Source of the DNA: Patescibacteria group bacterium
GTDB lineage: Bacteria > Patescibacteriota > Patescibacteriia > UBA9934
Reading direction: 5' to 3'
NCBI GenBank assembly: GCA_049296775.1
Contig: JBAQTB010000003.1
Coordinates: 270,068-334,067 of the forward strand
Length of the DNA stretch: 64,000 nucleotides
A program made the translations under genes and the position numbers. A model generated the notes under the pieces. The model had not been told where the DNA came from and made no database searches. It worked only from the letters and a program-made list of their open reading frames with translations. The stretch's first letter is position 1, and each line of letters opens with the position of its first letter. Shown here piece after piece: positions 5,564 to 63,854 of the stretch.

Positions 5564-6010
5564 TTGGGCAATTTGCTGGGGTCCGAACTCGGGCCCGGAA
5601 GTTATGCATTAATCGCCATGATCTTTTGCTTCACAGCTGCAACGGTGCTCTTCACAGAGAAACCCGAGTCAGCAACCCCGCCACCCCCGTTTGGCCTCCC
5701 CCGGCTAGACACGGGCACAGAACCACCGATCATGCCCGAACCGGTCGAGGTCGAGGAGCCGCCACCACCCGATCCTGCGATATACAGTCCGACTGGCTAT
5801 CGGTACGGGGATCCGGACCCGTGTGCTAGCTATATCAAAGCTAAACCGAACTTCTCCAGCGACGAGTGGCTGCTGTGGTGCGAAGAACATCACATGCGTC
5901 CGAGCGATGACATAAACTCGGAATGTCAAAACAGCCTGTATCTGGCCTGGGCCTATGGGGATACCGACAAACACCCGAGCTTCAAAAAACCGGATGGCTG
6001 TCACGACTAG
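5564..6010 (+). CDS. Hypothetical membrane-anchored Pro-rich protein (TTG start)
   Basis: N-terminal TM helix then proline-rich linker (PPPPFGLPRLDTGTEPPIMPEPVEVEEPPPPDP) and Cys-containing C-domain; preceded by promoter and RBS. Confidence 0.45.
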   Translation: MGNLLGSELGPGSYALIAMIFCFTAATVLFTEKPESATPPPPFGLPRLDTGTEPPIMPEPVEVEEPPPPDPAIYSPTGYRYGDPDPCASYIKAKPNFSSDEWLLWCEEHHMRPSDDINSECQNSLYLAWAYGDTDKHPSFKKPDGCHD

Positions 6011-6120
6011 CTCACGCGGCGTCTCTCAAGGACCTTACCTCTCATGGTGGGGTCCTATTTATTTACAAGCTATGCACGCCGACATTCACAGATCGTAAGT
6101 TTCCAGTTAAACTTACGCAT

Positions 6121-6558
6121 ATGAATAAAGCATTAGAATCAACGCCGTCAGCCGTCTCACGAGCGGAAGATGACGCTAAGCAACAAAAAGAGGCCTTCCT
6201 GCAGAACCTCCATCTAATTTCCGATCAGCAACGGACTGAAGTCTTGGCGCTCATCAATCAGCGCCAACTCCGGACTCTAGCCGAACAAGAAACCGCCTTC
6301 CATGAAGTCATGAGTAAATACCAAAAAACTAAAGTCGATAGCGGCGTTGGCGCTGAGACCCTAATCAACCAATACCTACTCATGAATCAGATCGAGACGA
6401 CGGCCGCTGAACAAAAACAGTTACTCAAAAATCTCAAAGCTAGCGAGGCCCTAACGTTACCGACTCCGCAACGTGAACGCGTCGTAGCTCAAATACTCGA
6501 CACATACTTTGGCAAAATTAAAGCCGACGATCAGGATGCCGCCTTGGCCCAAGCTTAG
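6121..6558 (+). CDS. Hypothetical coiled-coil protein
   Basis: ORF track 5923..6558 overlaps the previous gene; first ATG clear of the overlap is 6121 (MNKALESTPS...). No recognisable domain. Confidence 0.4.
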   Translation: MNKALESTPSAVSRAEDDAKQQKEAFLQNLHLISDQQRTEVLALINQRQLRTLAEQETAFHEVMSKYQKTKVDSGVGAETLINQYLLMNQIETTAAEQKQLLKNLKASEALTLPTPQRERVVAQILDTYFGKIKADDQDAALAQA

Positions 6559-7988
6559 TCGCGTTTGATCCCAGACGATTTGGAACGCAAGTTCCGGTGA
6601 TAAGCACCGGCGAATCTATGCGCTTCATCACGAGCTTTTTGAAAAACTTCTTTAAAGGCACTGGTTACCCGTCTTAACTCAGCATTACTAGCGTCATACA
6701 CTAACCGATCTTGTTTACGATCAAAACCTTTAGCAATCCCAACGATGGGAATGTTAAGCTTAAGCTCACGCAAAATTTGCTGAACACGATTAACCTGACC
6801 TTCGCCACCGTCGATAACCATAATGTCCGGCAGTGGCCATGATTCAGCTGACTTTTTTACTTGGTATGCAGGCGTGACTTGGTCGGAAAGAGTCGGCAAG
6901 CGAGCTAAGCGGCGTCTCATGACCTCTTCCATGGCGCCAACGTCATTACTGCTAGTAAAGCCTTTGATTTTAAATTTGCGATACTCGGATTTGCTCGGCT
7001 TGCCGCCCTCAAACACTGACATAGCGGCTACCATGCTCGTACCAGAAATATGGGCAATGTCATACGCTTCCACCCGGCCGAGAGCGTTAATATGACCAGC
7101 TGCAGGCGCGGCCGGCACGTCATAACCAGCGCCATCGTCTTTGATTAATAAACTAATGTCTTGGATGTGCTCCAGCGCGAACACGCGATTACGCAGGACG
7201 GCCGCGGCTTCAAAAGATTTTTTCCTGGCGGCCGCGGCCATTTCGCGTTTGAGCTGACGCAGCAAAGTCGCTTTCTTGCCCTCGAAAAATAACATCAGCT
7301 TCTTGATATTGCGTCGATACGTACGTTTATCGATAGTGCCAGCACAAACTCCCGGACATTTACCAATCTGCGCATCAAAGCACATTTTTGCGTTAGAGTA
7401 CTTCTCCCCCTTTTTTAAGGGGGAGGTTTGGTCGGAGGGGGTACTAGGGGCGGGTGGGTTACAAGTCGACCACGGAATCGAACGACGAATGAGATCGAGA
7501 GCGATCTTCAAAGATCGTCCACTCAGGTACGGACCGTACACAGCCAAGAATTGGCGACGAGCCTTGAGTGACAAGCGCTTGGAAAATGGTTGAATACCGA
7601 TGCGTTCAAGATCAAGTCCACGCATCAAGACTGGCTTAGGAAAGTCCTCGTTGGTAATACAAAGATAAATGAAACTCTTGTCATCGCGACCAAGAATGTT
7701 ATACGGCGGCTTATGCAGGCGAATCTGGTTGGCCTCCAACACCAAAGCCTCAATCACGGTTGGAACTTGAGAATATTTGATCTCGACAATCTTAGACACA
7801 AGCTCCGCCGTACGCGGATGTTTGTAGGTGCCAACGAAGTACGATCCAACGCGCTTCTTCAAGCTCGTCGCCTTACCAACGTACAGCAATTTACCAGCGG
7901 CATCGTAATAAAAATACACGCCTGGCGTATCTGGAAGGTCATTGTTGTGAATTTTGATTTGGTCTGGAATCATAGTTATCATTGACAT
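6555..7988 (-). CDS. uvrC: Excinuclease ABC subunit C (short form, 477 aa) with an in-frame repeat insertion
   Basis: GIY-YIG N-terminus (GVYFYYDAAGKLLYVGKATSLKKRVGSYF), Cys motif C..C..C, UVR region and RNase H-like domain; lacks a long C-terminal HhH tail. Confidence 0.85.
   Translation of the reverse strand: MSMITMIPDQIKIHNNDLPDTPGVYFYYDAAGKLLYVGKATSLKKRVGSYFVGTYKHPRTAELVSKIVEIKYSQVPTVIEALVLEANQIRLHKPPYNILGRDDKSFIYLCITNEDFPKPVLMRGLDLERIGIQPFSKRLSLKARRQFLAVYGPYLSGRSLKIALDLIRRSIPWSTCNPPAPSTPSDQTSPLKKGEKYSNAKMCFDAQIGKCPGVCAGTIDKRTYRRNIKKLMLFFEGKKATLLRQLKREMAAAARKKSFEAAAVLRNRVFALEHIQDISLLIKDDGAGYDVPAAPAAGHINALGRVEAYDIAHISGTSMVAAMSVFEGGKPSKSEYRKFKIKGFTSSNDVGAMEEVMRRRLARLPTLSDQVTPAYQVKKSAESWPLPDIMVIDGGEGQVNRVQQILRELKLNIPIVGIAKGFDRKQDRLVYDASNAELRRVTSAFKEVFQKARDEAHRFAGAYHRNLRSKSSGIKRD
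7404..7460. repeat. G/C-heptamer palindromic element (CTCCCCC-N8-GGGGGAG ... GAGGGGG) embedded in-frame in uvrC
   Basis: Inverted heptamers at 7404-7410 / 7419-7425 plus a third copy at 7435-7441; encodes the extra segment NPPAPSTPSDQTSPLKKGEKY between conserved UvrC Cys residues. Confidence 0.6.
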
Positions 7989-8032
7989 TATGCCTTATAT
8001 CTGCTAGTCTTGCACGTTCCGAATTATTCGGA

Positions 8033-8659
8033 ATGACTATTACGGAGCAAGCCATGCCCCTCGTGCAGCGTCCCTACACCTGGAAAGAGCGGCTCGTCGA
8101 CCAGATGGTCAAATGGATCAACCAGGTCACCGGTCATACCTATGAGCTGTCGTATCGCAAACACCTACCCTACCCAACTACACTCGCCGAAGAGTTGGAT
8201 GTACTCACGAAGTTGCACTTTGCCCTCAACCTCAATCGTGATAATGGTGGTGATACGCTACTCGTCAAACTAACGTGCTCTACAGTGCGACCTGTGTTTG
8301 GCCCTAGATTGTCGCAGCTCACTTACCCTACCGAAAGTTTCGTTCTGCCGAACAAGACAGTGAATGTCTACACCGTACTGTCTCATGAAACGCGCGGCCT
8401 CATACCCCGCCGTGAGGACAAACCCGGCGAATATGACTTCCGACACTGCCCAGTGACTATGCGCGCCTGGCAGGAAATCAAGCGACAGATGCCTCCGACC
8501 GGAACGACCACGATTACTTTAGATGACAAACATGGGAGATTGTCACGTTTTGTTTCAGGCGACTTCTTCATCGGTTCCTACCGCATCTTTAGGGGGCGTA
8601 TCGAGTACTCGCCTGAGATTCTGTCGGTAGTGATCGTACCGCAGTGGCACTCAACATAA
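8033..8659 (+). CDS. Hypothetical protein (between uvrC and uvrA, opposite strand)
   Basis: ORF fills the gap exactly; first ATG at 8033 (MTITEQAMPLVQRPYTW...); no recognisable domain. Confidence 0.4.
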   Translation: MTITEQAMPLVQRPYTWKERLVDQMVKWINQVTGHTYELSYRKHLPYPTTLAEELDVLTKLHFALNLNRDNGGDTLLVKLTCSTVRPVFGPRLSQLTYPTESFVLPNKTVNVYTVLSHETRGLIPRREDKPGEYDFRHCPVTMRAWQEIKRQMPPTGTTTITLDDKHGRLSRFVSGDFFIGSYRIFRGRIEYSPEILSVVIVPQWHST

Positions 8660-8693
8660 CTCGCCCCGCGGCCAACTCTGGCCCGGGGTGTTT

Positions 8694-11243
8694 CTATTTC
8701 AAGACATTACGCAAATATTTGCCCGTATGACTATTGGATTTGCGTGCAATGTCCTCTGGCGTGCCTACAGCCACAACAGTACCACCGCCATCGCCGCCTT
8801 CTGGACCCATATCGATCAACCAATCAGCGGTCTTAATCACGTCCAGGTTATGTTCAATAATAACCATACTATTCCCCTTGTCGACTAACTTATGCAGAAC
8901 CTCTAATAGCTGCTTAACATCATCAAAGTGTAAACCGGTAGTCGGTTCATCAAGCAGGTATAACGTACGTCCGGTCTGACGCTTTGATAATTCACTCGCC
9001 AACTTAATGCGCTGCGCCTCACCACCAGACAACGTGGTCGCGGATTGCCCAAGCTTAATGTACGCCAAACCGACCTCGTTCATGGCCTTCAACTTGTCAT
9101 GTACATCCGGCACATCTTTAAAGAACTCGATGCCGGTCTCCACGGTCATATCTAACACATCAGCGATATTCTTGTCCTTGAAAGTTACTTCCAAAGTCTC
9201 ACGGTTAAAGCGCTTGCCCTTACAAATTTCACAAGTTACATACACCGTTGGCAAGAAGTGCATCTCAATCTCAATCACACCGTGACCTTCGCAGTGATCG
9301 CAACGTCCACCTGGCACGTTGAAGCTAAAACGCCCTGGTTTGTAACCACGGAACCTGGCCTCTTCTGTAGCTGAAAAGAGTTCACGAATCGGCATCCAAG
9401 CGCCAGTGTAAGTGGCTGGGTTAGACCGTGAGGTTCGGCCAATGGCTCCCTGGTCAATCAAAATCGCCTTGTCTAAATACTCTAAACCAAGCACAGACTT
9501 ATGCTTACCCGGCTGCTGCTTGCCACCGTACAATTTCTTAGAGATCGCCTTGTACATGACGTCGTAGGCTAAGGTCGATTTGCCCGAACCCGACACGCCA
9601 GTCACACACACAAATTTACGCAATGGGAAATCGACGTCAACATTCTTTAAGTTATTTTCAACCGCACCACGGACCTTAATAGCACCGGCTTCTTTAACAC
9701 GACGCTCGGTGGGTACTTCGATCTTTAAATCTCCGCGCAAATACGCCGCGGTACGTGAATTTTTGTCCTTAAAAATCTCAGGTGTGGATCCCGCCGCAAC
9801 CACGTGGCCGCCGTGCACTCCAGCTCCAGGACCAATTTCTACCATGTAATCAGAACGGCGAATCGTGTCCTCATCATGCTCCACCACCAACACGGTATTC
9901 CCAAGATCACGAAGATGCTCCAAAGTTTCGATTAAACGTTCATTGTCACGCTGATGCAAGCCGATCGTTGGCTCATCGAGGACGTACATGGCGCCCACCA
10001 AGTGTGAACCGATCTGTGACGCTAAACGGATACGCTGCGCTTCACCACCAGACAACGTGCCAGCAGTTCTGTTCAAAGTTAGATAATGCAAGCCCACGTC
10101 CAACATGAAACTCAAACGGTTACTGATCTCTTTCAGCACGGAAGCCGCAATCTCTTGCTGACGTTCGTCTAATTTTAACTCTAGCAAAAACGTGATCGAC
10201 TCATCGACCGACTTATTGGTCACGCCCACAATCGATTCACCGCCAACATAAACATGCAGCGCTTCAGGCCGTAAACGCGCACCATGACACTCCAGACAAG
10301 CATCATCTGAAAATAAATTCAGCGTGCCCAACCCCGAACAAGTCTGACAGGCACCGTACGGACTATTAAACGAGAACAGTCGAGGTTCAATCTCCGGGAA
10401 AGAAAAACCGTCATCAGGACAACTAAATTTTGAAGATAGCAACCGTTCCTCCCCATCCGGAGTTACGATTAACGCCAAATCTCCACCTCTCTCAACTGCC
10501 TGTTCCAAGGCATCGGCCAAGCGTTGACGAGTGTCTTTGTGCATGTCGATCACAGCCGTGGCTGGCAAAGTATCAATCACAACCTCAATGGTGTGTTGTT
10601 TGTACCGTGACAATTCAACCTTTTCACTCAGTCTGTGGAACTTGCCGTCAATTCTCACTTTGGCAAAACCGGCGTTGTAAAGATCGTAAAGTAACTGGTA
10701 GTACTCGCCCTTTCTACCGCGAATTACGGGCGCTAGAATAACGACCTCTGCACCCGTTTTAAGTCGCGGACGGGTCGCGGATCCGTCCCTACCGCCAACA
10801 CCAGGCGCCTGCACATCGCGCTGCACGATGTCGACCATTTCATCAATAGATAACTTTTCGATCTTACGACCGCATTTAATGCAGTGCGGTTCACCAATTC
10901 TGGCGTACAGCACGCGCAAATAATCGTAAATTTCGGTAATGGTAGCAATGGTGGAACGCGGATTTCTGGAATGGGCTTTTTGATCAATGGAAATTGCCGG
11001 AGATAAACCTTCGATCTCATCCACGTCAGGCTTTTGCATGTTGCCCAGAAACTGCCTGGCATATGCCGAGAGCGATTCCACATACCGGCGCTGACCTTCT
11101 GCGAAAATGGTGTCAAAGGCTAACGAGGACTTGCCTGAGCCGGATAAGCCAGTAAAACAAATCAATTTATTCCTAGGGAGTTCTAGGGAAATATTCTTTA
11201 AATTGTGCTCTCTGGCACCTTTGATGACAATTTTATCTTGCAT
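8694..11243 (-). CDS. uvrA: Excinuclease ABC subunit A
   Basis: Two ABC ATPase modules with Walker [24 protein letters not shown] and [11 protein letters not shown], signature LSGGEAQRI twice, and zinc-finger Cys clusters; 849 aa. Confidence 0.9.
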
Positions 11244-42165: not shown

Positions 42166-44016
42166 ATGAAAAGATATACTCAAGCATTAGGAGGCCTCGT
42201 GGCCTTGGTTTTAATCTTTGGATCCCTGCAGCCCATGACAGCATCGGCGGCAACGACGGTTGATCTGGGCACAGCCGAAACTTTTGCAGTTTTGGCAGGT
42301 ACGGCAATTTCAGATACGGCTCCTTCTGTCATTACAGGGGACGTGGGTTTAAGTCCTGCCGCTGGTACTAACATCACCGGACTAACTTCAGGAGAAGTCT
42401 CCGGCACCATTTACGCAGTTGACGCTAATGGACCCGACGGCGCTTCTGGTAATGAGCCGGCATTCGTGAATGGCGCTAAAACCGATTTAGTCGCTGCCTA
42501 TTCTAGTGCTAGTCAAGTCACAACCGGAGTCATCGCCGCCGATCTTGGTGGGCAAACCCTGACGGCCGGCGTTTACGATGATAACGATGCACCTAACTCA
42601 CTTTCTATTGATGCCGGTGAAACGCTCACGCTCGACGCAGAAGGTGACGCTGATGCAGTCTTCATTTTCAAGACAGGGTCAACCCTGACAACAGGTGCCG
42701 GGAGTACAGTCTCACTGATCAATGGCGCCAGCGCCTGCAACGTCTTCTGGCAAATCGGGAGTTCCGCAACTCTAGGGACGGGCACTACTTTCGCCGGTAA
42801 TATCTTAGCTCTTACTTCGATTACTGATGATGGTGGTGCGACCGTTAATGGTCGCTTGTTGGCCCGTAACGGTGCAGTGACCCTGAATGACACTACCGTC
42901 ACCGTACCAGACTGTGCCGACCCTGAACCACCAGCTTCTGGCCCATCTTTCACAGGCAGTATCAACGTCGTTAAAATCGTCATCAATGACAACGGCGGCA
43001 CCGCCACTATCGACGACTTCCCACTCTTTGTGAACGGTACAGCGGTAGTCTCAGGTCGACCAGGTAATTTCACCGCCGGGACCTACACCATTACCGAAAC
43101 TAGCAATGCCAACTACACCCAGAGTTTCTCGGGAAGCTGTGATGCTGCCGGTAGATTAACTCTAAGTGCTTTCGAAACCACAGCCTGTATTGTTACCAAT
43201 GACGATATCGGTACGCCAGCTGTCATACCGCCAGCACCCCCTATCATCACGGTCGTCAAAGTACCTAGTCCACTTAGCTTGCCAGATGGTCCAGGCCCAG
43301 TCACATACACCTTCACTTTAAACAATATTGGAACTGTAGCCGTTACCAATGTCACCATGATTGATGACACTTGCAGCCCTGCTGCCTTAATCTCTGGCGA
43401 TACCAATGGGGACGCGGCGCTCGATATTAGTGAAACTTGGACCTACAGCTGTTCTGCCCTACTCTCGGAAACTCACACGAATACAGTCGTCGCGACTGGC
43501 TGGGCCAACGGCCTCAGTACCACCGATATCGCCTTTGCGACCGTGGTCGTAGGTGAACCGATCATTCCACCCTTCATTCACGTCACCAAAGTCCCAGATC
43601 CATTGACACTACTCGCTGGTGGTGGCTTAGTCACTTACACAGAAACCATCACCAACCCAGGTGAAGTCGCCCTAGAGAACGTCACTTTAACTGACGATAA
43701 ATGTTCACCGGTAAACTACATTTCCGGCGACACCAACGGTGATAACAGACTTGATCCGAACGAAGCCTGGGTACACACGTGTCAGGACACACTTACCGTA
43801 ACCACCACGAATATCGCTACCGCCACTGGTGAAGCTAACGGCCTAACGGCTACGGATTTTGCAGTGGTCACAGTCTTAGTCGCCGAATCTCTGCCAAGCC
43901 TGCCAAACGCCGGCATTGCCCCTCTGAATCGCAACCTAGCCCTACCAATCATTGCAGCTAACCTTGGTGTCATCACTGTACTTGGTTATTTGACCCTGAA
44001 AAAACTCTCTGTCTAA
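42166..44016 (+). CDS. Secreted ice-binding-like (DUF3494) protein with DUF11-type repeats and C-terminal LPNAG sorting signal
   Basis: Signal peptide; DLGTAETFAVLAGTAISDT..ITGDVGLSPAAG is the DUF3494/IBP signature; two ~100-aa DUF11-like repeats; C-terminal LPNAG + hydrophobic stretch + KK tail. Confidence 0.7.
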   Translation: MKRYTQALGGLVALVLIFGSLQPMTASAATTVDLGTAETFAVLAGTAISDTAPSVITGDVGLSPAAGTNITGLTSGEVSGTIYAVDANGPDGASGNEPAFVNGAKTDLVAAYSSASQVTTGVIAADLGGQTLTAGVYDDNDAPNSLSIDAGETLTLDAEGDADAVFIFKTGSTLTTGAGSTVSLINGASACNVFWQIGSSATLGTGTTFAGNILALTSITDDGGATVNGRLLARNGAVTLNDTTVTVPDCADPEPPASGPSFTGSINVVKIVINDNGGTATIDDFPLFVNGTAVVSGRPGNFTAGTYTITETSNANYTQSFSGSCDAAGRLTLSAFETTACIVTNDDIGTPAVIPPAPPIITVVKVPSPLSLPDGPGPVTYTFTLNNIGTVAVTNVTMIDDTCSPAALISGDTNGDAALDISETWTYSCSALLSETHTNTVVATGWANGLSTTDIAFATVVVGEPIIPPFIHVTKVPDPLTLLAGGGLVTYTETITNPGEVALENVTLTDDKCSPVNYISGDTNGDNRLDPNEAWVHTCQDTLTVTTTNIATATGEANGLTATDFAVVTVLVAESLPSLPNAGIAPLNRNLALPIIAANLGVITVLGYLTLKKLSV

Positions 44017-44194
44017 GTCAGTTCACTATACAACCGTAAGAAGACGTATCGTCGGCATTTTTGCAGTCTCGACTAGTCTTCTTGGTGTATTCGCCTTCCT
44101 TGGTTGGCACAACCTCTCAGCTTACGAGCCATCAGTCATTCCCGTCGCAGTTGCCATAGCCGAGCCCGAGATCGAACCTGCCATAGCCGTTCAT

Positions 44195-44671
44195 GTGATC
44201 GTCACTCCCCCACCCGTCAAAATTAGCGACCCTGTCAGACTTAAAATTCCCAGTCTCAAAATTGACGCTGCTGTTGAACAGGTGACCGTTACCGCCGCCG
44301 GGGCCATGGCCGTCCCCACCGATCCTATGATCACGGGTTGGTATCAACACGGACCTCGTCCCGGCGAATCAGGTAGTGCCACCATCTCTGGACACGTCAA
44401 TTGGTGGTCAGGAGTTGAAGGTATTTTTATCGATCTCCATAAACTAAAAATCGGCGAAACTATCGTAGTCCAAGATGATCAAGGACAAGACGTTACTTTT
44501 GCGGTAAGAGACATTCAAAAGTTAGACTCAAACGCCGACACTACGGCCGTTTTTACCTCAGACGATGACCGAGCCCATCTCAACCTCATCACCTGCTCCG
44601 GCGCCTGGGATTCTGCAGCTAGGCAATATACCCAACGCCTAGTGGTCTTTACGGATAAGGTTGGCGAGTAG
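44195..44671 (+). CDS. Sortase (class E/F-like) adjacent to its LPNAG substrate
   Basis: Catalytic His (ISGHVNWW), TLITC motif (LNLITCSG) and Arg (RLVVF); GTG start at 44195; upstream in-frame TM anchor lacks a canonical start codon. Confidence 0.7.
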   Translation: MIVTPPPVKISDPVRLKIPSLKIDAAVEQVTVTAAGAMAVPTDPMITGWYQHGPRPGESGSATISGHVNWWSGVEGIFIDLHKLKIGETIVVQDDQGQDVTFAVRDIQKLDSNADTTAVFTSDDDRAHLNLITCSGAWDSAARQYTQRLVVFTDKVGE

Positions 44672-55088: not shown

Positions 55089-56378
55089 CTAATTAGCAGC
55101 GCTGGCGAAATGGAAAGTTAGGTACGCTTTACGTGTACCATTGGCGACTGGGTTGAAATACACGCCCACGGCCGTGACGTCCCAGCGGGCATCGACAACA
55201 TTCTGGAAATGCATGCCGTTATAGGATTCTTCGCTCATAAACATTGCGAATGATTCGGCTAACATGCGCTGCATTTCAGACGCCTCTGTATCGGCGTAAA
55301 CCATACTCAGATTCTCGCCAAAATCGTAAGTATCGTATGAACCTTTGGCCCAAGCCAATAAATTCTCGCCGTACGGACGCGTATGTGTAAGCGTTTGGCG
55401 TGTTCCCAAATACGCCGACCAATTAGCGCTAGTGTCCACTAACCCCTGAACAGTATCTAACGGTGCCAGTCCCCGCCCTGTCCGTTCAGTATTCAACATG
55501 TCTAGCCACAAGCTATTCAGTTCAACAATATCAAAGCCACCTGGCAAAGCACCGGCCTGGTATTCGCTAAGTTCAATCACCCGTACCTCATCCGTCTCAC
55601 CCAAAACTTCACCAATCCCGTCATCACCGTACGGACGCAGGGTCAGCTCAGCTTCTGTAATCGCGGTCAAATCGAGATCAGTAATACCTAAACTGTGTAA
55701 ACGCATGACAGCGTAAGCGGCTGGGCCATCGGCCAAGTAATACACGGTGCCGTTAGGGTGAATGTAATAAGCCTCACCATATTCCTCAACGCGCAGCACA
55801 ATGCGTCCGCGTAAACGTCTGCGCAATTCCCCGTCACTCGCCGCTAAAATGGCATAATCGGCCTCTGTCATGCCCAAACCAAACGTCCGCATCATTTCAT
55901 AAGCCGTTGGCCCGTCTTTCATGTAAAAACGTTGTCCAGTTAATGGATCCACGTACCAGGCCTCACCATGAGCCTCCGTCTGCAACAAGATATAGCCCCT
56001 GGTTCTGGCCCGAATACCCGCCGCCGCTGATGACGACAGTGGCGTCTGGCTAGCTGATTCTGTGTATAGCGCTTCTGTCACGGCCAAGAGCTGAGCACCC
56101 ACCCAGCCTTCTGTACCGTTACTCAACCGAACACGCCACCAACCATCAGTCTCGCCAGTCACCGCCAGTTTTGTGCCAGCACTCAAAGTCGTCATGACCA
56201 GAGAGCCCTCCATACAAGCCACATCACGCACAAAAGCACCGCTAATCACAACCCCTGTCCAAGTATGGTCAAGCACGGGATCGCTAAAGCAGTCACCGGC
56301 CATAGCTGGCCTAACACCCAGCGTAGCACTTAGTAAAGCCACGCCCAAGATAACGCTACAGAGCTTAGAAAATTTCAT
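55089..56378 (-). CDS. Secreted CAP/SCP/YkwD-domain protein with two ~55-aa GEAWY repeats
   Basis: Signal peptide; repeats ..GYILLQTEAHGEAWYVDP.. / ..GRIVLRVEEYGEAYYIHP..; C-terminal CAP domain (HTRPYGENL...MSEESYNGMHFQNV). Confidence 0.6.
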   Translation of the reverse strand: MKFSKLCSVILGVALLSATLGVRPAMAGDCFSDPVLDHTWTGVVISGAFVRDVACMEGSLVMTTLSAGTKLAVTGETDGWWRVRLSNGTEGWVGAQLLAVTEALYTESASQTPLSSSAAAGIRARTRGYILLQTEAHGEAWYVDPLTGQRFYMKDGPTAYEMMRTFGLGMTEADYAILAASDGELRRRLRGRIVLRVEEYGEAYYIHPNGTVYYLADGPAAYAVMRLHSLGITDLDLTAITEAELTLRPYGDDGIGEVLGETDEVRVIELSEYQAGALPGGFDIVELNSLWLDMLNTERTGRGLAPLDTVQGLVDTSANWSAYLGTRQTLTHTRPYGENLLAWAKGSYDTYDFGENLSMVYADTEASEMQRMLAESFAMFMSEESYNGMHFQNVVDARWDVTAVGVYFNPVANGTRKAYLTFHFASAAN

Positions 56379-56420: not shown

Positions 56421-57476
56421 ATGCGAAAATATCTTGTATTTCTAGGCTTAGCGGCGCTACTTATGCCCGTGCCTAGTCAGGCCGCTACCAGCTTAGCTGA
56501 GCGCCTCAGCGGGCGCGTCCTTTTAGCGGTGGAAGCGCACGGTGAAGCCTGGTACGTGGATCCGGTGAGTTTAAATCGAGCTTTTCTCAACAGGCCCGCT
56601 GACGCCTTCAGAATCATGACCAGCTACGGACTAGGTATTACCAATCAAGACTTAAACAAAATCCCCACTGTAGCTAGCTCCAGCACTGGCGACCTCGCCC
56701 TAAGGCGCCGTCTGGCTGGCAGAATTTTATTGCAAGTACAGGGGCATGGTGAAGCTTGGTATGTTGATCCTGTGAGTTTGAAACGCGTCTTCCTGAATCG
56801 CCCCGAAGATGCCTTTGGTATCATGACTGATTACGGACTCGGCATCACCAATGCTAACTTAGCCAGCATTACCCTAGCTATGAGCAGTAATAGCATCAAG
56901 GTCGCTCAAACGGTGCCATTCACTACTCAAGCACCGCTTGGGGCCTGGAGTGACCCGCGTCAACAAGATGGCTGTGAGGAAGCCGCGGTGCTTATGGCAC
57001 TCGCCTGGGCCAAGGGCGAAAGTTTAACGCCCGCCTCCGCTGCAGCAACTATCATCGCCATGTCTGACTGGGAAGAACAAACTTTTGGCTATTTTCAAGA
57101 CACCAGCATCCAGGACACCGCCACTCGCCTAATGGCTACTTACTCAAATTTCACAAATTACGCCGTTAAAACTCCGGCCAATCTCACTGATTTAATCGTC
57201 AGTCTAAACGCTGGTAAAATCGCGATTGTACCCATCAACGGCCAGGTCTTCTCACCCTTTCATTACACTCCCCCAGGACCAGCCAGACACGTCATCGTCG
57301 TCCACGGCTACGATTCGGCTACACAAATGTTCAGCGTACATGATCCCGGCACTAGCTCCGGCGCCAATCTACAAGTCACCGCGCAAGTTCTAGACACCGC
57401 TTGGCGTGATTACGCCTCAGGTGAACAAATACCCATTCCAGAGCTCCCCAATGCTATGATAGTCGTCAGTAGATAA
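56421..57476 (+). CDS. Secreted protein with two GEAWY repeats and C-terminal peptidase C39-like (papain-fold) domain
   Basis: Repeats GRVLLAVEAHGEAWYVDPVSL x2; C39_2-like Q..GCEEAAVLMAL (Cys), HVIVVHGYD (His), D. Confidence 0.6.
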   Translation: MRKYLVFLGLAALLMPVPSQAATSLAERLSGRVLLAVEAHGEAWYVDPVSLNRAFLNRPADAFRIMTSYGLGITNQDLNKIPTVASSSTGDLALRRRLAGRILLQVQGHGEAWYVDPVSLKRVFLNRPEDAFGIMTDYGLGITNANLASITLAMSSNSIKVAQTVPFTTQAPLGAWSDPRQQDGCEEAAVLMALAWAKGESLTPASAAATIIAMSDWEEQTFGYFQDTSIQDTATRLMATYSNFTNYAVKTPANLTDLIVSLNAGKIAIVPINGQVFSPFHYTPPGPARHVIVVHGYDSATQMFSVHDPGTSSGANLQVTAQVLDTAWRDYASGEQIPIPELPNAMIVVSR

Positions 57477-57492
57477 ACTTTGTCAGTAACTT

Positions 57493-57966
57493 ATGCGGAG
57501 TCCCCAAGGTTTTAGCCGAACAGATACCACCGTGGTACTGGGTCTTATAGCCATCATTGCCGTCATACTTTTGGCGACCCTCAATCCGGCTGCTCGTTTC
57601 CAAGAGGCTAGAGATGCCAAACGCTGGAGCGACGCTGAAAATATCCTCGAAGCGATTAAGCAGGCACAAATTGAAAATGGCGGGAGCTACCCTGCAAGCG
57701 TTGCCAATACGGCCGCAAATAAACTGTATCAAATCGGTACGGCTGAATCTGGTTGTGACACTGGCTGTGGCGATTTTGTCACAGAGCCAACGTGCGTGAA
57801 CTTAACCGACCTCGTCAACCAAGGTCAGCTAACAGAAGTACCGCTCGCGCCAGGCATGTATTCAGACGCTATGACCGGTTATTATCTCATCCGCAAACTT
57901 TCCGGCAGTCTTGAGGTTGGGGCCTGTGACCCCGGCCAAACCGAGAATATCTCCGTGTCGCGCTAA
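57493..57966 (+). CDS. Type IV pilin-like protein (prepilin-type N-terminus)
   Basis: QGFSRTDTTVVLGLIAIIAVILLATL resembles a class III signal (G/F, acidic +5, hydrophobic helix), followed by pilin-like ARDAKRWSD..YP and a Cys-rich head. Confidence 0.5.
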   Translation: MRSPQGFSRTDTTVVLGLIAIIAVILLATLNPAARFQEARDAKRWSDAENILEAIKQAQIENGGSYPASVANTAANKLYQIGTAESGCDTGCGDFVTEPTCVNLTDLVNQGQLTEVPLAPGMYSDAMTGYYLIRKLSGSLEVGACDPGQTENISVSR

Positions 57967-58010: not shown

Positions 58011-59255
58011 ATGCTAAAAAAACGCCTCAAAAAACCCAGTCTAGGCCAACGTGTCTTGAAGGCTTTGCATACCGGACTCAAGAATCATTTCATTCCGCAT
58101 GCTGGCAATCAACACGTCCCCAAAATTCTGCACAGACGGAGTTTATTTGGCTTTAGCATTCTCTTGATTACTCTCAAAGTCTTGGTTATTGGGGTTGGCA
58201 TCAGTTTTCCAGCCGCGAGTTTATTTTCAAGCGCTGTCACCCCCACCAACATCATCAATCTCACCAATGAGACCAGAACGAGCCTTGATCTACCAACCTT
58301 AAGCACAGACACTAAACTCATGCAGGCTGCCCAAGCTAAGGCGGAAGACATGTTCCTCAATGATTACTTCGCTCATACCAGCCCAGAAGGCACTACTCCT
58401 TGGTATTGGTTCAAAACTTTTGGATATAATTATCGCTCTGCCGGCGAAAATCTCGCGGCCCACTTCAGTCAGGCCGAGGATGTCGAGGCGGGTTGGATGG
58501 CTAGCCCGAGCCACCGAGATAATATCGTCAGTGATCGTTACAATGAAATCGGCGTAGGCGTGGCGCAAGGCATGTTCGAAGGCTACCAAACTACCTTTGT
58601 CGTGCAAATGTTTGGCTATGAGCTCAATCAGGCCGCCAGCCACGACGCTGTAGTCACTCCGACTCCTACCACTGACCAAACCGAACCAGTACAGATTGCC
58701 GTGGTAGACACTCTGCCGCCAATGACAGAAGATACTGTCGATGACAGCGAGGCTCTAGTAATTGAGGCGGAAAGTCTCGTACTGACACCTATCCAGGGCG
58801 GCTATGCAGCCACTATTTACATGGAGAATGTGAATGAGGCCGTGTTGTACATTGGCAACAACAGGGTACCCTTCGTGCCGGCCACAGCGCCAAACACCTG
58901 GCAAAGCGTAGTGCTCTACGATGACAAAACGATCAGCGAGGAAGGTGAAAGACTGTATTTAGTGGCAGGTAGTGCCCAAGGAGAACAGAAGATCGTCGAC
59001 CTAGCCTGGATCATGCCGGGCGCGGATGCACCCAAAGTTTACGCCTTCAAACAAGCAGAAACGCCTAAACTCTTAGGCGTCATGGATATAGCTAACCTAG
59101 ATGACAACGTCAAAAAAATCTACCTCTTTGCCCTGCTCTTCTTGGGCAGTGCTCTAGCCGTCGCCGTCTTGGTCAAGTTCGAGATTCAAAAACCAACCAT
59201 GATCGCCCACAGCCTAGCAGTGATGGCCCTGATTCTAATTCTGACTTTCATCTAG
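58011..59255 (+). CDS. Membrane-anchored CAP/SCP/YkwD-domain protein
   Basis: N-terminal TM anchor; CAP motifs YFAHTSPEGTTPW, GENLA, GWMASPSHRDNI, EIGVGVA; C-terminal TM helix. Confidence 0.65.
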   Translation: MLKKRLKKPSLGQRVLKALHTGLKNHFIPHAGNQHVPKILHRRSLFGFSILLITLKVLVIGVGISFPAASLFSSAVTPTNIINLTNETRTSLDLPTLSTDTKLMQAAQAKAEDMFLNDYFAHTSPEGTTPWYWFKTFGYNYRSAGENLAAHFSQAEDVEAGWMASPSHRDNIVSDRYNEIGVGVAQGMFEGYQTTFVVQMFGYELNQAASHDAVVTPTPTTDQTEPVQIAVVDTLPPMTEDTVDDSEALVIEAESLVLTPIQGGYAATIYMENVNEAVLYIGNNRVPFVPATAPNTWQSVVLYDDKTISEEGERLYLVAGSAQGEQKIVDLAWIMPGADAPKVYAFKQAETPKLLGVMDIANLDDNVKKIYLFALLFLGSALAVAVLVKFEIQKPTMIAHSLAVMALILILTFI

Positions 59256-59849
59256 CTCTGCGATTACAATAAACCGCTGTAAAGCCGTACCAAGCGGATA
59301 AGAGGCCTGTAAGCTCAAGATCTTACGTTCGTAATTATACTGATCCAAAACGCTCAAGTCTCTTGGGCTCACGATTTTAGTTTCAAAAACAGTATACGTA
59401 AACACCTGACCCTCCGCATTGCTAACCTTGATTTGACTACCTAAAGCAATTTCTGGCAAACGAGCAAAAACGGTCTTGTAATTACCGGGTGTCCACACGT
59501 AATCACTAGAATGTCCAAAAATATACACGTTGCCCAACTCCCCTGGTTCTGGCGTTTGCGGGAATCTGACTACGCCGTCACGTAGCGCCAACTGATAAGC
59601 CGCTTCTGACTCTTCTTCCGTGTATTTAATTGGTGCCTCAATGCCTAAACTGGGGATTTGGAGCGTGTCTGGTGCCATGACCTCTGATGTCTGTTCGAGC
59701 GTCGCTTCTGGCTCTGGCAAGGGCTGAATCGGACTTAAACGCGCCTTAGCGTACGGATAAGCCAATACCAGAATCAGTCCCGCGAATACCATGGTCGCGA
59801 TCAGAGAAGCCTTAGCCTGAAACATATAGCTAGCAGAAAACCCCGCCAT
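59235..59849 (-). CDS. Sortase homologue with catalytic Cys replaced by Ser
   Basis: N-terminal TM anchor, conserved His (IFGHSS) and Arg (RFIV), but LSLQASYP where sortases have TLxTC. Confidence 0.6.
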   Translation of the reverse strand: MAGFSASYMFQAKASLIATMVFAGLILVLAYPYAKARLSPIQPLPEPEATLEQTSEVMAPDTLQIPSLGIEAPIKYTEEESEAAYQLALRDGVVRFPQTPEPGELGNVYIFGHSSDYVWTPGNYKTVFARLPEIALGSQIKVSNAEGQVFTYTVFETKIVSPRDLSVLDQYNYERKILSLQASYPLGTALQRFIVIAELDESQN

Positions 59850-59906
59850 CTCACCTGATCAATCAGGAAAAAGAGCGGGGTTTTGGATTAAACTCGTGAC
59901 TTAAGC

Positions 59907-62900
59907 CTAGTGTCTGCGACGGGCCATGAAGGCAAGGACGGAACCAACCGCGATCACGCCGGCCAGTGGCACACCAGTGCGCGGCAACTGGTCAGTCGCA
60001 CCTGCTACAACTGGATCTGGCTGTTCTTCCAGAGTACCGCCACTAGACTCGTCAGTAGTACCTGGTTGCTCATCAGACTCACCCAACACCTCGCCTGGAG
60101 TGGTGTCAGTATCAGTCGCGGAATCGTCTGTATTGTCATCAGTGCTGTCATCGGTACTGTTGTCAGTGTCGCCGTCAGTATTTTCATCGGTATCACCTAG
60201 AACAGCACCGTCACCCGTGCCCGAACCAGAGCCGCCATTACCACCACCATTAGTCGACCCACCAGATGATGAACCGCCACCTGACGGCAAACCACCAAAA
60301 GTGTTGGTGATAGTACAAATCGCATCCTCATCCGAGGCGATATTTCCTACAGCATTGTTAATAGATGTCTCCACACAGTCCCCAGAGAAACTAGACTCGT
60401 AACCGCTTCTAATATCTTCAAAAACGGTGTAGTCACCTGGAGGCAGTACGGTTGGCGCACCAACATCTACCTGTACGCCATTTAGATACAATCCAAAGCC
60501 ATCTTCTGGAGCATCGCCGCCGACAACGACAACGTTAATCGTCAAACTGCCGTCAAACATTTCGCCAGCAACATCGTCATTAGTGATATCACACACCTGC
60601 TCATCACCAGCTCTCACGATGAACTCGCCGTTGATACAGTCATTACTAAAGGTGGTCACGTAACGGTCAGAAACCTGTTCGCCTTCAGTTGGCTCAACTA
60701 CATATTCCTCGGTAATCACGTGGAAAACATCAGGGGTAACTTCAATTGGCGTATCCAACGCTACTTCTGTGCCGTCAATGAAGAAAGCGAAGTTAGCTAG
60801 CTCATCCACCGCGCCGTTATCCTGAATCAAAGTCTTCCGCAACGTAATCGTGGTTGGACCTAATTCTTCATCCATCACATCACAGTAAGTCGAATTGGCA
60901 TCAGCTGTGACGGAGTTTGGTTCGGTACTTACAATGGTCCAGGTCAACGGAATACTTCCAGCAAAGATAACTTCTGTGTAATCTCCCATGCTGTCTGTCT
61001 CAAAAGTGGAAGGCTGACCCTGATCCTGATCTAACAAACCACCACCAACAAATCGGTTCTCAAAAGTACCGGCCTGAATAAAGACTGGGCCTGGGTTAGA
61101 GGACGTATAGCCGAAGAGACCTCTCAACATCCCTTCACCGACGTCTTCAACGCACACCACGTGCGGAATGATCGAGGCAGTGACGCTAAAGAGTTCCGTA
61201 TCTTGCAAAGTAATCACACAGGCTAAGTCACCTCCAGTTGTCATGTCACCTGCACAATCATCACTATAATCAACGGTATAGCCCGTAGTATCACCAACCA
61301 AGTCAGTGCTAAAGGCGCCAGTAACCACAGCGTCAATGCCTGTTTCGCTACCCGCGACAGACTGATCACCAACGGTATCGGTAATTGTAACGGTAAAATC
61401 ATCAGCCTCCGCTACGCCGCCTTCGTCATTCTGCACGTTCACGGTAACGTTCAAGTTGCCAACTGGCGCCAACGGCTCAAAGCCAAAGCGCAAATATTTC
61501 CACTGACGATTCTGCGCCAATTCAACACGGTAACAATACTGACCAGCAACATTTGGATCAGCTTCTGAAGTAATTTTTACTGGAGCAGCAACCAGCGGCT
61601 CTTTATAGCCGTCAGCCGGAGAAGTTTGCCTAAAACCAGCGCCCATATCCTCGGCACACACATGGTAAACACCAGCTGGCAGACCCATAAAACGATACTG
61701 ACCAACTAGCAAGGGGCCAGTGTCATCTGTCTCAGTACCGGTCACAACGCTACTCATGAAGCCAAAAGTCTCATTGTAAAGGCTAATCGTGACGCCATCT
61801 AAACGATTCGTCTCCCCACCTGGGTGAACGCCGTCACCATCAACGTCAGCATAAACTATACCCTGCATGATAGCGTTATCCGTACTCACACCAATGTAAG
61901 TATTGGTAATCGTACAGTCTAAATGCTGACCAAGCGTCAAAGTACCAGACTCACAACCCTCTGAAATCAACGCGAGGTAATCAGGGTTCTCAATTTCGTA
62001 CAGCAAAAAGTCACCAGCGTCTAAGCTGAGATCAATACCGGTAGCACTCGCTTGGAAGACCTGCTCGGAGACTGGCCCAAGTGGCGCTGTATTAAGATCC
62101 TCATCTTGATCAACAAACACGTCAGCGCCCTCAACAGCTAGGCTAAAATCGCTAGCGCTGACTGCTGGGCCACCGTTGATCAACTTGGTCACCGTGATGG
62201 TAGCTGGTTTGTCGTCATTAACAATAGTACAGAAGGTTTCCTCACCCTCAAGCACGACCAAATGGGCGATACCATCAACATCCTCATAGCAATCCCCTTC
62301 GTAAGTCACGTCATACCAATCAGCAATCTCAAGATCACCGTGATCTCCTACCCAGCTCTCAACCAAAATGTAATCACCGGCGAAATAGTTGAAAGGCACA
62401 CCTGAAACAGCGTTAGTGACCGCTGGTGAACCATCTCGGTTGTAGACGTTGAACACAAAGTCAGAATCAGTTTCTGTGCCACCGTTATCGTTCGGCAAAG
62501 TCTTAAAGATGGTGACTGGAGCAACCTGAGGGGTGTAAGTGTTCGTAATCGTACAGGTCAAATCAGCCTCAGCCGCCATCACACCCGTACAGAATTCACT
62601 GCTCTCACGCTGATAGGTTGGGTAATCTGACTCAACCACTGAGAAAGCTGCACCGTCTGGAATAATATATCCTGTACCGCCCTCCTCAAAAGCGACTGGA
62701 CCGATAGCATCCTGATCGCCAATTTGAATGGTGTATGTGAAGTCAGCCACGCTAGCGTCACTATTTACGACCTCTTTAACAACCGTGAGCGTGCCGGGAC
62801 CAGGAACAACCTCAATTGGCTCAAAGCCAAAGCGTAAGAATTCCCAGGTCTTATTAGGCGTCAGGTTAACAACATAACAAAACTGACCAGGAACATTCGG

Positions 62901-63854
62901 ATCTAATTCAGGCTGAATTTTAACTGGCGCAGCTACCACTGGCTCTTTGTAACCTTCAGTTGGTGAAGTTTGCTGATACCCCGCCCCCATCTCCTCTACA
63001 CACACGTGGTAGAAAGCTGGAGTCAAATTGTTAAATTTGAACTGACCCACCAAAACCGGTCCAGTTTCTGGAGTTTCCACACCAGTCACCGAGCTGCGGA
63101 TAAATTCGAAAGACTCATTGTAAAGCGAGACTTCAATGCCGTCTAAACGATTAGCGATACCGTTTGGGTGCACACCATCACCGTCAACGTCGTTATATAC
63201 GATTCCCTGCAAACCAGAGTTACCCTGGTTACACGTTACGGACACATTATCGAGAAAAGTACCAAAACCATCCGCTGGAGTACCGCGATCCGCAAAAGCC
63301 ACTGAGGCGCCATCACCTGCGGCGGTCACTGTAAAAGTATAAGTCGACCAGGCAGTGTTGTCGCTAATGGCCGCGTCCGTAGTAATCACACCAAGAGAAT
63401 CGCCGTTCCAAAAAACCTCAACGGCATTATTTTCAATTGCAGTATCTGGACGAGCTGAAAAAGCAAAGCTCAGAGTGTATTCGGCTCCTGGCGTGGTCAA
63501 CAAACGCTGCCCAATGATAGTTGGTACGGTACTATCTAGTTCCGCGAATTGCTCACCTTCCGCTGCCAACCAACCGGCGTAACCAGACTGAATCTCTAAT
63601 TCTGAGCTAATGCTGTCATCGCTAGCCTCAGACACATACCACTCCAAGCCCTCGGTCTCGTCTGGAAAACTGTCCCATGTACCACCGTCATTACCTAAAA
63701 TCGGATCGACAACTGGCGTTTCAAAACTGCCATTAGCTACAATGTTGCCTGGCAAACACTCCAACTGCGGATCAATCGCGGCTAAGGCCGAGCTCAAAGG
63801 CAAGACGTTAAGACACATCGCAAGTACCGATACTGAGGCAATAAATCGTTTCAT
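59907..63854 (-). CDS. LPXTG (LPRTG)-anchored adhesin-like protein with SdrD-B/Cna-B-type repeats
   Basis: Signal peptide; two ~250-aa repeats each containing GIVY.DVDGDGVHP.G..NRLDG...SLYNE.F (SdrD-B-like); Gly/Ser and Asp/Thr low-complexity linker; C-terminal LPRTG + hydrophobic stretch + RRRH. Confidence 0.8.
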   Translation of the reverse strand: MKRFIASVSVLAMCLNVLPLSSALAAIDPQLECLPGNIVANGSFETPVVDPILGNDGGTWDSFPDETEGLEWYVSEASDDSISSELEIQSGYAGWLAAEGEQFAELDSTVPTIIGQRLLTTPGAEYTLSFAFSARPDTAIENNAVEVFWNGDSLGVITTDAAISDNTAWSTYTFTVTAAGDGASVAFADRGTPADGFGTFLDNVSVTCNQGNSGLQGIVYNDVDGDGVHPNGIANRLDGIEVSLYNESFEFIRSSVTGVETPETGPVLVGQFKFNNLTPAFYHVCVEEMGAGYQQTSPTEGYKEPVVAAPVKIQPELDPNVPGQFCYVVNLTPNKTWEFLRFGFEPIEVVPGPGTLTVVKEVVNSDASVADFTYTIQIGDQDAIGPVAFEEGGTGYIIPDGAAFSVVESDYPTYQRESSEFCTGVMAAEADLTCTITNTYTPQVAPVTIFKTLPNDNGGTETDSDFVFNVYNRDGSPAVTNAVSGVPFNYFAGDYILVESWVGDHGDLEIADWYDVTYEGDCYEDVDGIAHLVVLEGEETFCTIVNDDKPATITVTKLINGGPAVSASDFSLAVEGADVFVDQDEDLNTAPLGPVSEQVFQASATGIDLSLDAGDFLLYEIENPDYLALISEGCESGTLTLGQHLDCTITNTYIGVSTDNAIMQGIVYADVDGDGVHPGGETNRLDGVTISLYNETFGFMSSVVTGTETDDTGPLLVGQYRFMGLPAGVYHVCAEDMGAGFRQTSPADGYKEPLVAAPVKITSEADPNVAGQYCYRVELAQNRQWKYLRFGFEPLAPVGNLNVTVNVQNDEGGVAEADDFTVTITDTVGDQSVAGSETGIDAVVTGAFSTDLVGDTTGYTVDYSDDCAGDMTTGGDLACVITLQDTELFSVTASIIPHVVCVEDVGEGMLRGLFGYTSSNPGPVFIQAGTFENRFVGGGLLDQDQGQPSTFETDSMGDYTEVIFAGSIPLTWTIVSTEPNSVTADANSTYCDVMDEELGPTTITLRKTLIQDNGAVDELANFAFFIDGTEVALDTPIEVTPDVFHVITEEYVVEPTEGEQVSDRYVTTFSNDCINGEFIVRAGDEQVCDITNDDVAGEMFDGSLTINVVVVGGDAPEDGFGLYLNGVQVDVGAPTVLPPGDYTVFEDIRSGYESSFSGDCVETSINNAVGNIASDEDAICTITNTFGGLPSGGGSSSGGSTNGGGNGGSGSGTGDGAVLGDTDENTDGDTDNSTDDSTDDNTDDSATDTDTTPGEVLGESDEQPGTTDESSGGTLEEQPDPVVAGATDQLPRTGVPLAGVIAVGSVLAFMARRRH

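Follow-up and report, generated by a model that had tools for sequence, protein, structure and literature searches.

A 64,000-nucleotide stretch of Patescibacteria DNA (GenBank assembly GCA_049296775.1, contig JBAQTB010000003.1, positions 270,068 to 334,067; hereafter the window, in whose own numbering all positions are given) encodes a 204-amino-acid (204-aa) sortase that carries serine at the position of the catalytic cysteine, and the gene lies directly downstream of one encoding a 1315-aa surface protein that ends in an LPRTG sorting signal. In our judgment, which rests on sequence comparison and a predicted structure, the chances are somewhat better than even that the 204-aa protein works as a membrane-anchored sortase, one of a clade specific to Patescibacteria whose nucleophile is Ser183 and not a Cys. 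That it represents a conserved clade of Ser-bearing sortases coupled to LPRTG substrates is very probable. An earlier note on this DNA had drawn attention to the Cys-to-Ser change and treated it as the property of a single odd gene; the gene in fact belongs to a large Patescibacteria clade that is monophyletic and coupled to LPRTG proteins. The features on which the argument depends are as follows.

59235..59849, minus strand: Ser-type sortase gene, 204 aa (open reading frame, ORF), encoding an N-terminal membrane helix and then a sortase beta-barrel
59825, minus strand: alternative sortase start at Met9, the NCBI-annotated start, giving the 196-aa NCBI protein MFZ2682313.1
59301..59303, minus strand: Ser183 codon TCT, at the nucleophile-Cys position; motif LSLQASYP versus canonical TLxTC
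59511..59513, minus strand: His113 codon CAT, at the catalytic His position; motif IFGHSSDY
59274..59276, minus strand: Arg192 codon CGG, at the catalytic Arg position; motif LQRFIV
59907..63854, minus strand: secreted surface protein of 1315 aa, the candidate substrate (ORF, Pfam and NCBIfam matches, repeats)
59910..59987, minus strand: cell-wall sorting signal of the 1315-aa protein, with LPRTG at 59987-59973, the hydrophobic segment VPLAGVIAVGSVLAFMA and the basic tail RRRH

The 204-aa protein is a sortase with serine at the catalytic cysteine position

The 204-aa protein matched the Pfam Sortase family (PF04203) with an E value of 3e-21 and 75.9 bits, and it scored 41.0 against the general NCBIfam sortase model, for which the cut-off is 39.35. 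It fell below the cut-off of every NCBIfam class model (NF033745-NF033748, NF058671 and TIGR03784, covering classes A-F and GN), scoring 48.8 against a cut-off of 140 for SrtD, 47.8 against 165 for class D, 39.8 against 160 for class E, 39.2 against 166 for class F, 27.9 against 160 for class C, and 24.1 against 158 for class GN. The sortase beta-barrel was detectable both from the sequence and in the predicted fold, and by these two measures the protein belongs with the sortases, nearest to classes D and E. In the structure model, residues 6-38 form a predicted helix whose hydrophobic stretch, ASLIATMVFAGLILVLAY, corresponds to a membrane anchor.

The register of the active site was set by HMMER alignments to the solved sortases 4d70 and 8t28. 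In these alignments, LSLQAS183YPLG is in register with MTIVTC of 4d70 and LTLVTCTPLG of 8t28, which places Ser183 on the catalytic Cys; IFGH113SS is in register with IAGH of 4d70, which places His113 on the catalytic His; and QR192FIV is in register with DRYIV and HRILL (4d70, 8t28), which places Arg192 on the catalytic Arg. The canonical Cys of the TLxTC motif, at the end of strand beta7 in sortases, is missing, and the protein contains no Cys at all; the His expected at the end of beta4 and the Arg expected on beta8 are both present. The sortase hallmarks named in the earlier note (the anchor, the His of IFGHSS and the Arg of RFIV) were therefore borne out, and so was its reading of ILSLQASYP against LNLITCSG of the window's other sortase (beginning at 44195), on which the two sequences and the alignments to 4d70 and 8t28 agree.

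Serine is conserved across homologues of the 204-aa protein

Ser occupied the nucleophile position in 224/224 clade members, a set that was selected by motif. The sequence there is L[TS][LVI]Q[TA]S[YW]P throughout the clade, including all 120 of the closest homologues. When 1.84 billion cluster representatives (50% identity) were searched exhaustively with HMMER, 103 hits were returned at E<=1e-30, and Ser was present in about 118 of the best 150 of these 50%-identity representatives. A further 29 of the best 150 are the nearest Cys relatives, and their motif, LTL[IMV]TC[TWY]PxGT..[KR]R, makes the positional correspondence between Ser and Cys unambiguous. Because 86 of the 120 closest homologues have no Cys anywhere, the role of nucleophile has not passed to a Cys elsewhere in the chain, and the realignment that the earlier note had allowed for, with a Cys brought onto the catalytic site, is impossible for these proteins and for the 204-aa protein itself.

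The codon in the window, TCT, is one base from TGT, and we therefore considered whether a true TGT had been misread as TCT in sequencing or assembly, or whether the gene is decaying. Among 87 genes, the codons at the Ser site were TCT (23), TCC (22), TCG (21), TCA (19), AGT (1) and AGC (1), with free turnover at the third position; TGT and TGC, which are one step from TCT and TCC, were seen in 0/87. The use of all six Ser codons together with the absence of Cys codons indicates that Ser itself is under selection. The 224 homologues in which Ser is invariant come from independent assemblies, the reading frame in the window is intact, the structure model is confident, and the core residues are highly conserved. 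Moreover, the protein is identical to MFZ2682313.1, from a Patescibacteria metagenome-assembled genome (MAG) at NCBI (383-kb contig), and is also present in a Logan assembly. Family-wide Ser conservation and codon usage rule out a miscalled base or a decaying gene, to which we assign a vanishingly small probability. Decay thus drops from the three options that had been put forward at the outset, and the choice lies between a Ser-nucleophile sortase and a pseudo-enzyme, with the evidence leaning toward a working enzyme.

Conservation of Ser in orthologues, which the earlier note had named as an argument for function, is accompanied by conservation of both partner residues. When 224 Ser sequences were aligned with 29 Cys sequences, His113 was 100% conserved in both groups, and Arg192 was 99% conserved among the former and 100% among the latter, the sister group. 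The relaxed or mixed catalytic positions that are the signature of a pseudo-enzyme were not observed (Ser 100%, His 100%, Arg 99%; n=224), and no Ala, Gly or Thr occurred at the Ser183 position among the 224 sequences. Other residues shifted with the Cys-to-Ser change: Gln181 is present in 100% of the Ser clade versus Met, Ile or Val in the Cys group, Tyr109 in 91% versus Val or Phe, and Asp116 in 96% versus 24% of the Cys sister group (in which Asn, Asp or Gly is found), while Tyr184, Ala189 and a one-residue insertion, Gly147, are also near-fixed in the Ser clade. Judging from strand geometry, Gln181 (two residues before Ser183) and Tyr109 (four before His113) should face the same side on their strands, and this set of near-fixed co-changes around the nucleophile looks like a remodeled active site.

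These patterns bear directly on the main rival explanation, that the protein is a non-catalytic pseudo-sortase that has kept the fold, the groove, His and Arg, and that binds the LPRTG signal of its neighbor as a holdase, chaperone or membrane-retention factor, with cleavage carried out by a separate Cys sortase or not at all. The defining Cys is, after all, absent, and replacing it with Ser (C184S) cripples Staphylococcus aureus SrtA (PMC4827206); a precedent exists in SipA, which is reported to be an inactive enzyme homologue essential in a Streptococcus pyogenes sortase pathway (PMC4049620). A binding-only role would, however, leave unexplained why a hydroxyl is absolutely invariant across 224 sequences and six codons, why there has been no reversion whatsoever to Cys, and why the residues around the nucleophile have changed to near-fixation. 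We consider this explanation unlikely, while giving it more weight than any other alternative.

The Ser-bearing sequences form one clade

In a neighbor-joining tree (no bootstrap), rooted with the window's class-F-like sortase, 225 Ser sequences formed a single clade nested among Cys sequences. A scan that took a single genome from each GTDB species found relatives encoded in at least 165 genomes, a count that covers the Ser clade only, as the scan patterns contained the Ser motif. For 80 loci listed of those 165 genomes, the record titles mostly name Patescibacteria or Candidate Phyla Radiation (CPR) lineages, including Doudna-, Uhr-, Kerfeld-, Veblen- and Yanofskybacteria and Parcubacteria. 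A few of the 80 bear other labels, which probably reflect placeholder names or binning.

Sequences in which a Ser-sortase domain follows a long N-terminal region, apparently as a fusion, were also noted (P0122, 517 aa; P0126, 673 aa; P0187, 919 aa), and a long ORF at one locus (L039, 5876-7429) may encode a substrate fused to a sortase, or may result from a missed stop or start.

Our literature searches, on serine sortases, on sortases of CPR, Patescibacteria and Parcubacteria, and on LPRTG and QTSYP, found no description of a Ser-sortase clade, although coverage was incomplete and an earlier description elsewhere is possible; within the same incomplete coverage, we found no report of a Ser/Cys nucleophile swap inside the sortase family. 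A 2021 paper gives His-Cys-Arg as common to all sortases (PMC8703055), and CPR genome papers name sortases merely as an enriched family (PMC6744442).

Ser sortase genes are coupled to genes for LPRTG surface proteins

The 1315-aa protein encoded upstream of the Ser sortase has an N-terminal signal peptide and a C-terminus that reads ATDQ-LPRTG-VPLAGVIAVGSVLAFMARRRH, so that the sorting signal is a complete one of the LPXTG type, with the motif, the hydrophobic VPLAGVIAVGSVLAFMA and the basic RRRH. Between these ends are an N-terminal DUF642 or choice-of-anchor-C-like domain (a sub-threshold match in Pfam and NCBIfam), two DxDGDG repeats of roughly 150 aa, five prealbumin-like C-x-I-T/V-N modules, and an acidic low-complexity stalk. 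The protein had been described as an SdrD-B-repeat adhesin, a description that we do not retain because no Pfam SdrD_B match was obtained even at E<=5; a PDB sequence search with the protein returned only noise. The proposed gene order did hold: the ORFs confirm that the adhesin gene is followed head-to-tail by the sortase gene, with a 57-bp spacer between them. Orthologous adhesin-sortase arrangements are present at four other loci (L001 and L007-L009).

We called ORFs in 83 non-redundant Ser-sortase loci, with 7 kb of flanking DNA per side. At 55 of the 83, the same-strand gene immediately upstream of the sortase ends in an exact LPRTG followed by a hydrophobic segment and basic residues, and the gap between the two genes is mostly less than 100 bp or is replaced by an overlap. 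Only 2 other LPRTG tails were found in the flanks of all 83 loci. The signal extends beyond the pentapeptide, with the consensus V-L-G-A-x-T/D-E-LPRTG-x-P. The cargo is diverse, ranging from 200 to 1680 aa and including DUF642, SpaA-like and DUF11 domains. One locus (L047, 5510-8818) has a tandem arrangement of an LPRTG protein (428 aa), a Ser sortase, a second LPRTG protein (103 aa) and a second Ser sortase (301 aa). Two loci carry LPKTG or LPTTG in place of LPRTG.

A role for Asp116 as the reader of the substrate Arg was considered and rejected, since Asp is retained at the LPKTG and LPTTG loci and replaced by Asn at one LPRTG locus, an anecdotal comparison of three informative loci. Separately, the genes upstream of the sortase at four loci (L029, L055, L060 and L073) share a variant tail, LPRTGFPFDLAQL..P.LAAYPW[LF][KR]RRY plus about 15 residues, which exceeds the usual hydrophobic-plus-basic tail in both length and conservation.

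The window's Cys sortase has a neighboring substrate of its own

The window also contains a second sortase and surface-protein pair, with which the first can be compared.

42166..44671, plus strand: comparison pair consisting of a canonical substrate (42166-44016) and a Cys sortase (44195-44671)

The Cys sortase is class-F-like (130 bits, below the cut-off of 166) and has the motif LNLITCSG. Its gene begins 179 bp downstream of one encoding a 616-aa ice-binding-like/DUF11 protein that ends in LPNAG, a transmembrane segment and KK. Among 22 metagenome loci, homologues of this Cys sortase follow [LF]P[NKQE]TG proteins at 11, and at none of the 22 do they follow an LPRTG protein. Because the Cys sortase adjoins its own LPNAG substrate, the window contains two separate sortase-substrate pairs, and the Ser and Cys systems look separate at the sequence level.

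The earlier note had suggested that the LPRTG protein may depend on this Cys sortase. Given the LPNAG neighbor and the consistent absence of LPRTG partners, such dependence is possible and is not the reading we favor. The same data bear on the pseudo-sortase explanation. That a Cys sortase is encoded in the same genome would supply the separate cleaving enzyme it calls for; the window's Cys sortase is, however, paired with a different motif, and no Cys sortase was found within 7 kb at any of the 83 Ser-sortase loci.

Proposed mechanism and points against it

The invariance of Ser, His and Arg, selection at the codon level, co-evolved residues, a single origin followed by radiation, and linkage to LPRTG proteins together fit an active enzyme with a changed nucleophile, and not a decaying or merely structural homologue. 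We accordingly lean, slightly, toward catalytic activity through Ser183. In the mechanism we propose, the 1315-aa protein would, after secretion, stay in the membrane through the hydrophobic segment and basic tail at its C-terminus, and the Ser sortase would bind the extended signal (V-L-G-A-x-T-E)-LPRTG. His113 would act as the general base that deprotonates Ser183, possibly with help from Asp116, Gln181 and Tyr109, the clade-specific residues that are candidates for extra machinery serving a Ser nucleophile. Attack by Ser183 on the Thr-Gly bond would yield an acyl-O-ester enzyme intermediate, with the ester replacing the thioester, and Arg192 would stabilize the oxyanion or transition state and the substrate. 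Finally, an amine of a peptidoglycan precursor would resolve the ester, leaving the adhesin linked to the cell wall.

A broader proposal, which we regard as evenly balanced between true and false, is that these proteins are the first natural Ser-nucleophile sortases: a single early event in a Patescibacteria lineage would have converted the active site of the barrel from Cys-His-Arg to Ser-His-Arg (plus Asp, Gln and Tyr), and the result would now provide many of these bacteria with their standard means of attaching LPRTG adhesins to the wall through an oxidation-insensitive ester acyl-enzyme that could be used for orthogonal ligation.

Several points weigh against catalysis by Ser183. The S. 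aureus SrtA C184S variant loses most of its activity (PMC4827206), so a Ser nucleophile would need adequate compensating changes. One candidate for such a change, Asp116, is in the loop that the structure model predicts with the lowest confidence (block 111-120, pLDDT 79). Binding of the signal might in principle be reason enough for His, Arg and Ser to be conserved, and the Cys sortase encoded in the window's genome might cleave LPXTG-like signals. In addition, about 26 of the 83 loci have no adjacent substrate and lie amid housekeeping genes such as ruvB, uvrA and queA. The loci without an LPRTG neighbor suggest, from gene order, that some Ser sortases may be general enzymes rather than dedicated ones.

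An active Ser enzyme might also produce a different outcome, either hydrolyzing the Thr-Gly bond and so releasing the adhesin, or transferring it to a non-amine acceptor, such as a glycan or lipid hydroxyl, with an ester-linked product. All of the evidence for catalysis applies equally to such an enzyme, and an ester acyl-enzyme partitions between water and amines differently from a thioester. According to one paper, the Patescibacteria envelope is poorly known (PMC5220378). The substrates nevertheless keep a full tripartite signal of the LPXTG type, the Arg typical of transpeptidating sortases is retained, and nothing points to a different acceptor. We judge this outcome improbable, more so than a pseudo-sortase, and prefer attachment of the adhesin to the cell wall by a Ser-dependent sortase.

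Gene neighborhood of the Ser-sortase locus

Two further features adjoin the Ser sortase gene in the window.

59837..59884, minus strand: inverted repeat of 10 bp, AAAACCCCGC ... GCGGGGTTTT, in the adhesin-sortase spacer, spanning the first sortase ATG
58011..59255, plus strand: CAP-domain membrane protein, 414 aa (Pfam CAP, E 2e-18)

A terminator-like site was predicted at 59848-59831, in the region of the inverted repeat, and the repeat may act as a partial terminator or attenuator between the two genes. The CAP gene and the sortase gene converge, with a 21-bp overlap at the 3' end of the latter. The same CAP neighbor is present at Ser-sortase loci L001, L004, L005 and L006, and a CAP homologue lies within the locus, often directly adjoining, at 19/83. 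At its N-terminus the CAP protein carries the conserved motif HFIPHxGNxHxPH, and at its C-terminus a transmembrane segment. A second CAP protein, with SH3 and CAP domains, is encoded 3 kb away at 55089-56378 on the minus strand.

Beyond the CAP gene, the plus strand at 56421-57966 encodes two proteins, one resembling Peptidase_C39_2 and the other small and similar to type IV pilins. At the related locus L001, the homologue of the small pilin-like protein matches N_methyl, and the same genes adjoin T2SSE and T2SSF pilus-assembly genes. The pilin-like and C39-like neighbors, together with the pilus-assembly genes at L001, indicate that the adhesin-sortase pair is embedded in a cell-surface gene cluster. 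Elsewhere, a sub-group of Ser sortases without substrate neighbors is found between a gene for a bPH_2-domain protein and ruvB (L003, L023, L025, L040, L066 and L082, at around 6000-8700 in each).

Comparison with known systems

Sortases are textbook cysteine transpeptidases (MEROPS C60), drug targets and widely used tools for protein ligation, and Patescibacteria, which account for a large share of bacterial diversity, are difficult to grow in culture, with envelopes that are poorly understood. A Ser-dependent sortase would be unexpected for specialists. If the proposal is correct, the sortase fold can work with either of two nucleophiles, the display of adhesins by which many Patescibacteria would attach to host cells is explained, and a small Cys-free enzyme with strict LPRTG specificity becomes available for protein engineering. 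If the protein is instead inactive, it would be a widespread dedicated receptor for sorting signals, which would also be new for the sortase pathway.

The class D and E sortases, represented by Clostridium perfringens SrtD (4d70) and Streptomyces SrtE (5go5, 5cuw), have a Cys nucleophile where the Ser clade has Ser, and a hydrophobic residue two positions before it where the Ser clade has Gln. Their signals also differ, being LPxTA for class D and LAxTG for class E, whereas the Ser clade is associated with a strict LPRTG and a VLGAxTE lead-in.

The Cys sister sortases (among them P0218, P0223 and P0229, with LTL[IMV]TC[TWY]PxGT..R) show 35-51% identity and share with the Ser sortases GHSS, W119, Y124-K125, F128, T182, P185-x-G187-T188 and R192. 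They differ in retaining Cys, in lacking Gln181 and Tyr109, and in having Asp116 only in part. No adjacent upstream LPRTG substrate was found at four Cys-sister loci (P0218, P0229, P0234 and P0261), the contigs of which are short or uninformative. Many Cys sisters (P0246-P0248, P0255, P0256, P0259, P0260, P0263 and P0266) have a conserved C-terminal extension, LPxxxPS[IL]W..I..FF, that is missing in the Ser clade.

Dedicated sortase-target pairs are known from the class GN "marine" sortases (TIGR03784) and the class C sortases of pilus islands, in which the sortase likewise adjoins a target with a distinctive motif in a one-to-one relationship. Compared with the class GN system, the Ser sortases belong to another clade (24 bits against a cut-off of 158), have another residue at the nucleophile position, and are paired with highly variable cargo (200-1680 aa).

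Swaps between Ser and Cys nucleophiles have occurred in other superfamilies, as in the chymotrypsin-fold Ser proteases and viral 3C Cys proteases, and in the Ser D,D-transpeptidases and Cys L,D-transpeptidases. These enzymes follow the same acyl-enzyme logic, with either residue serving on a single fold or in a single type of reaction, and their folds are unrelated to that of sortase. For the pseudo-sortase explanation, the closest parallel is S. pyogenes SipA, which is reported to be an inactive signal-peptidase homologue needed for pilus assembly, and thus an enzyme homologue that works in surface-protein assembly without a catalytic residue (PMC4049620). SipA, as described there, has a different fold and has lost its catalytic residues entirely, whereas the Ser sortase keeps a potential nucleophile and both of its partners.

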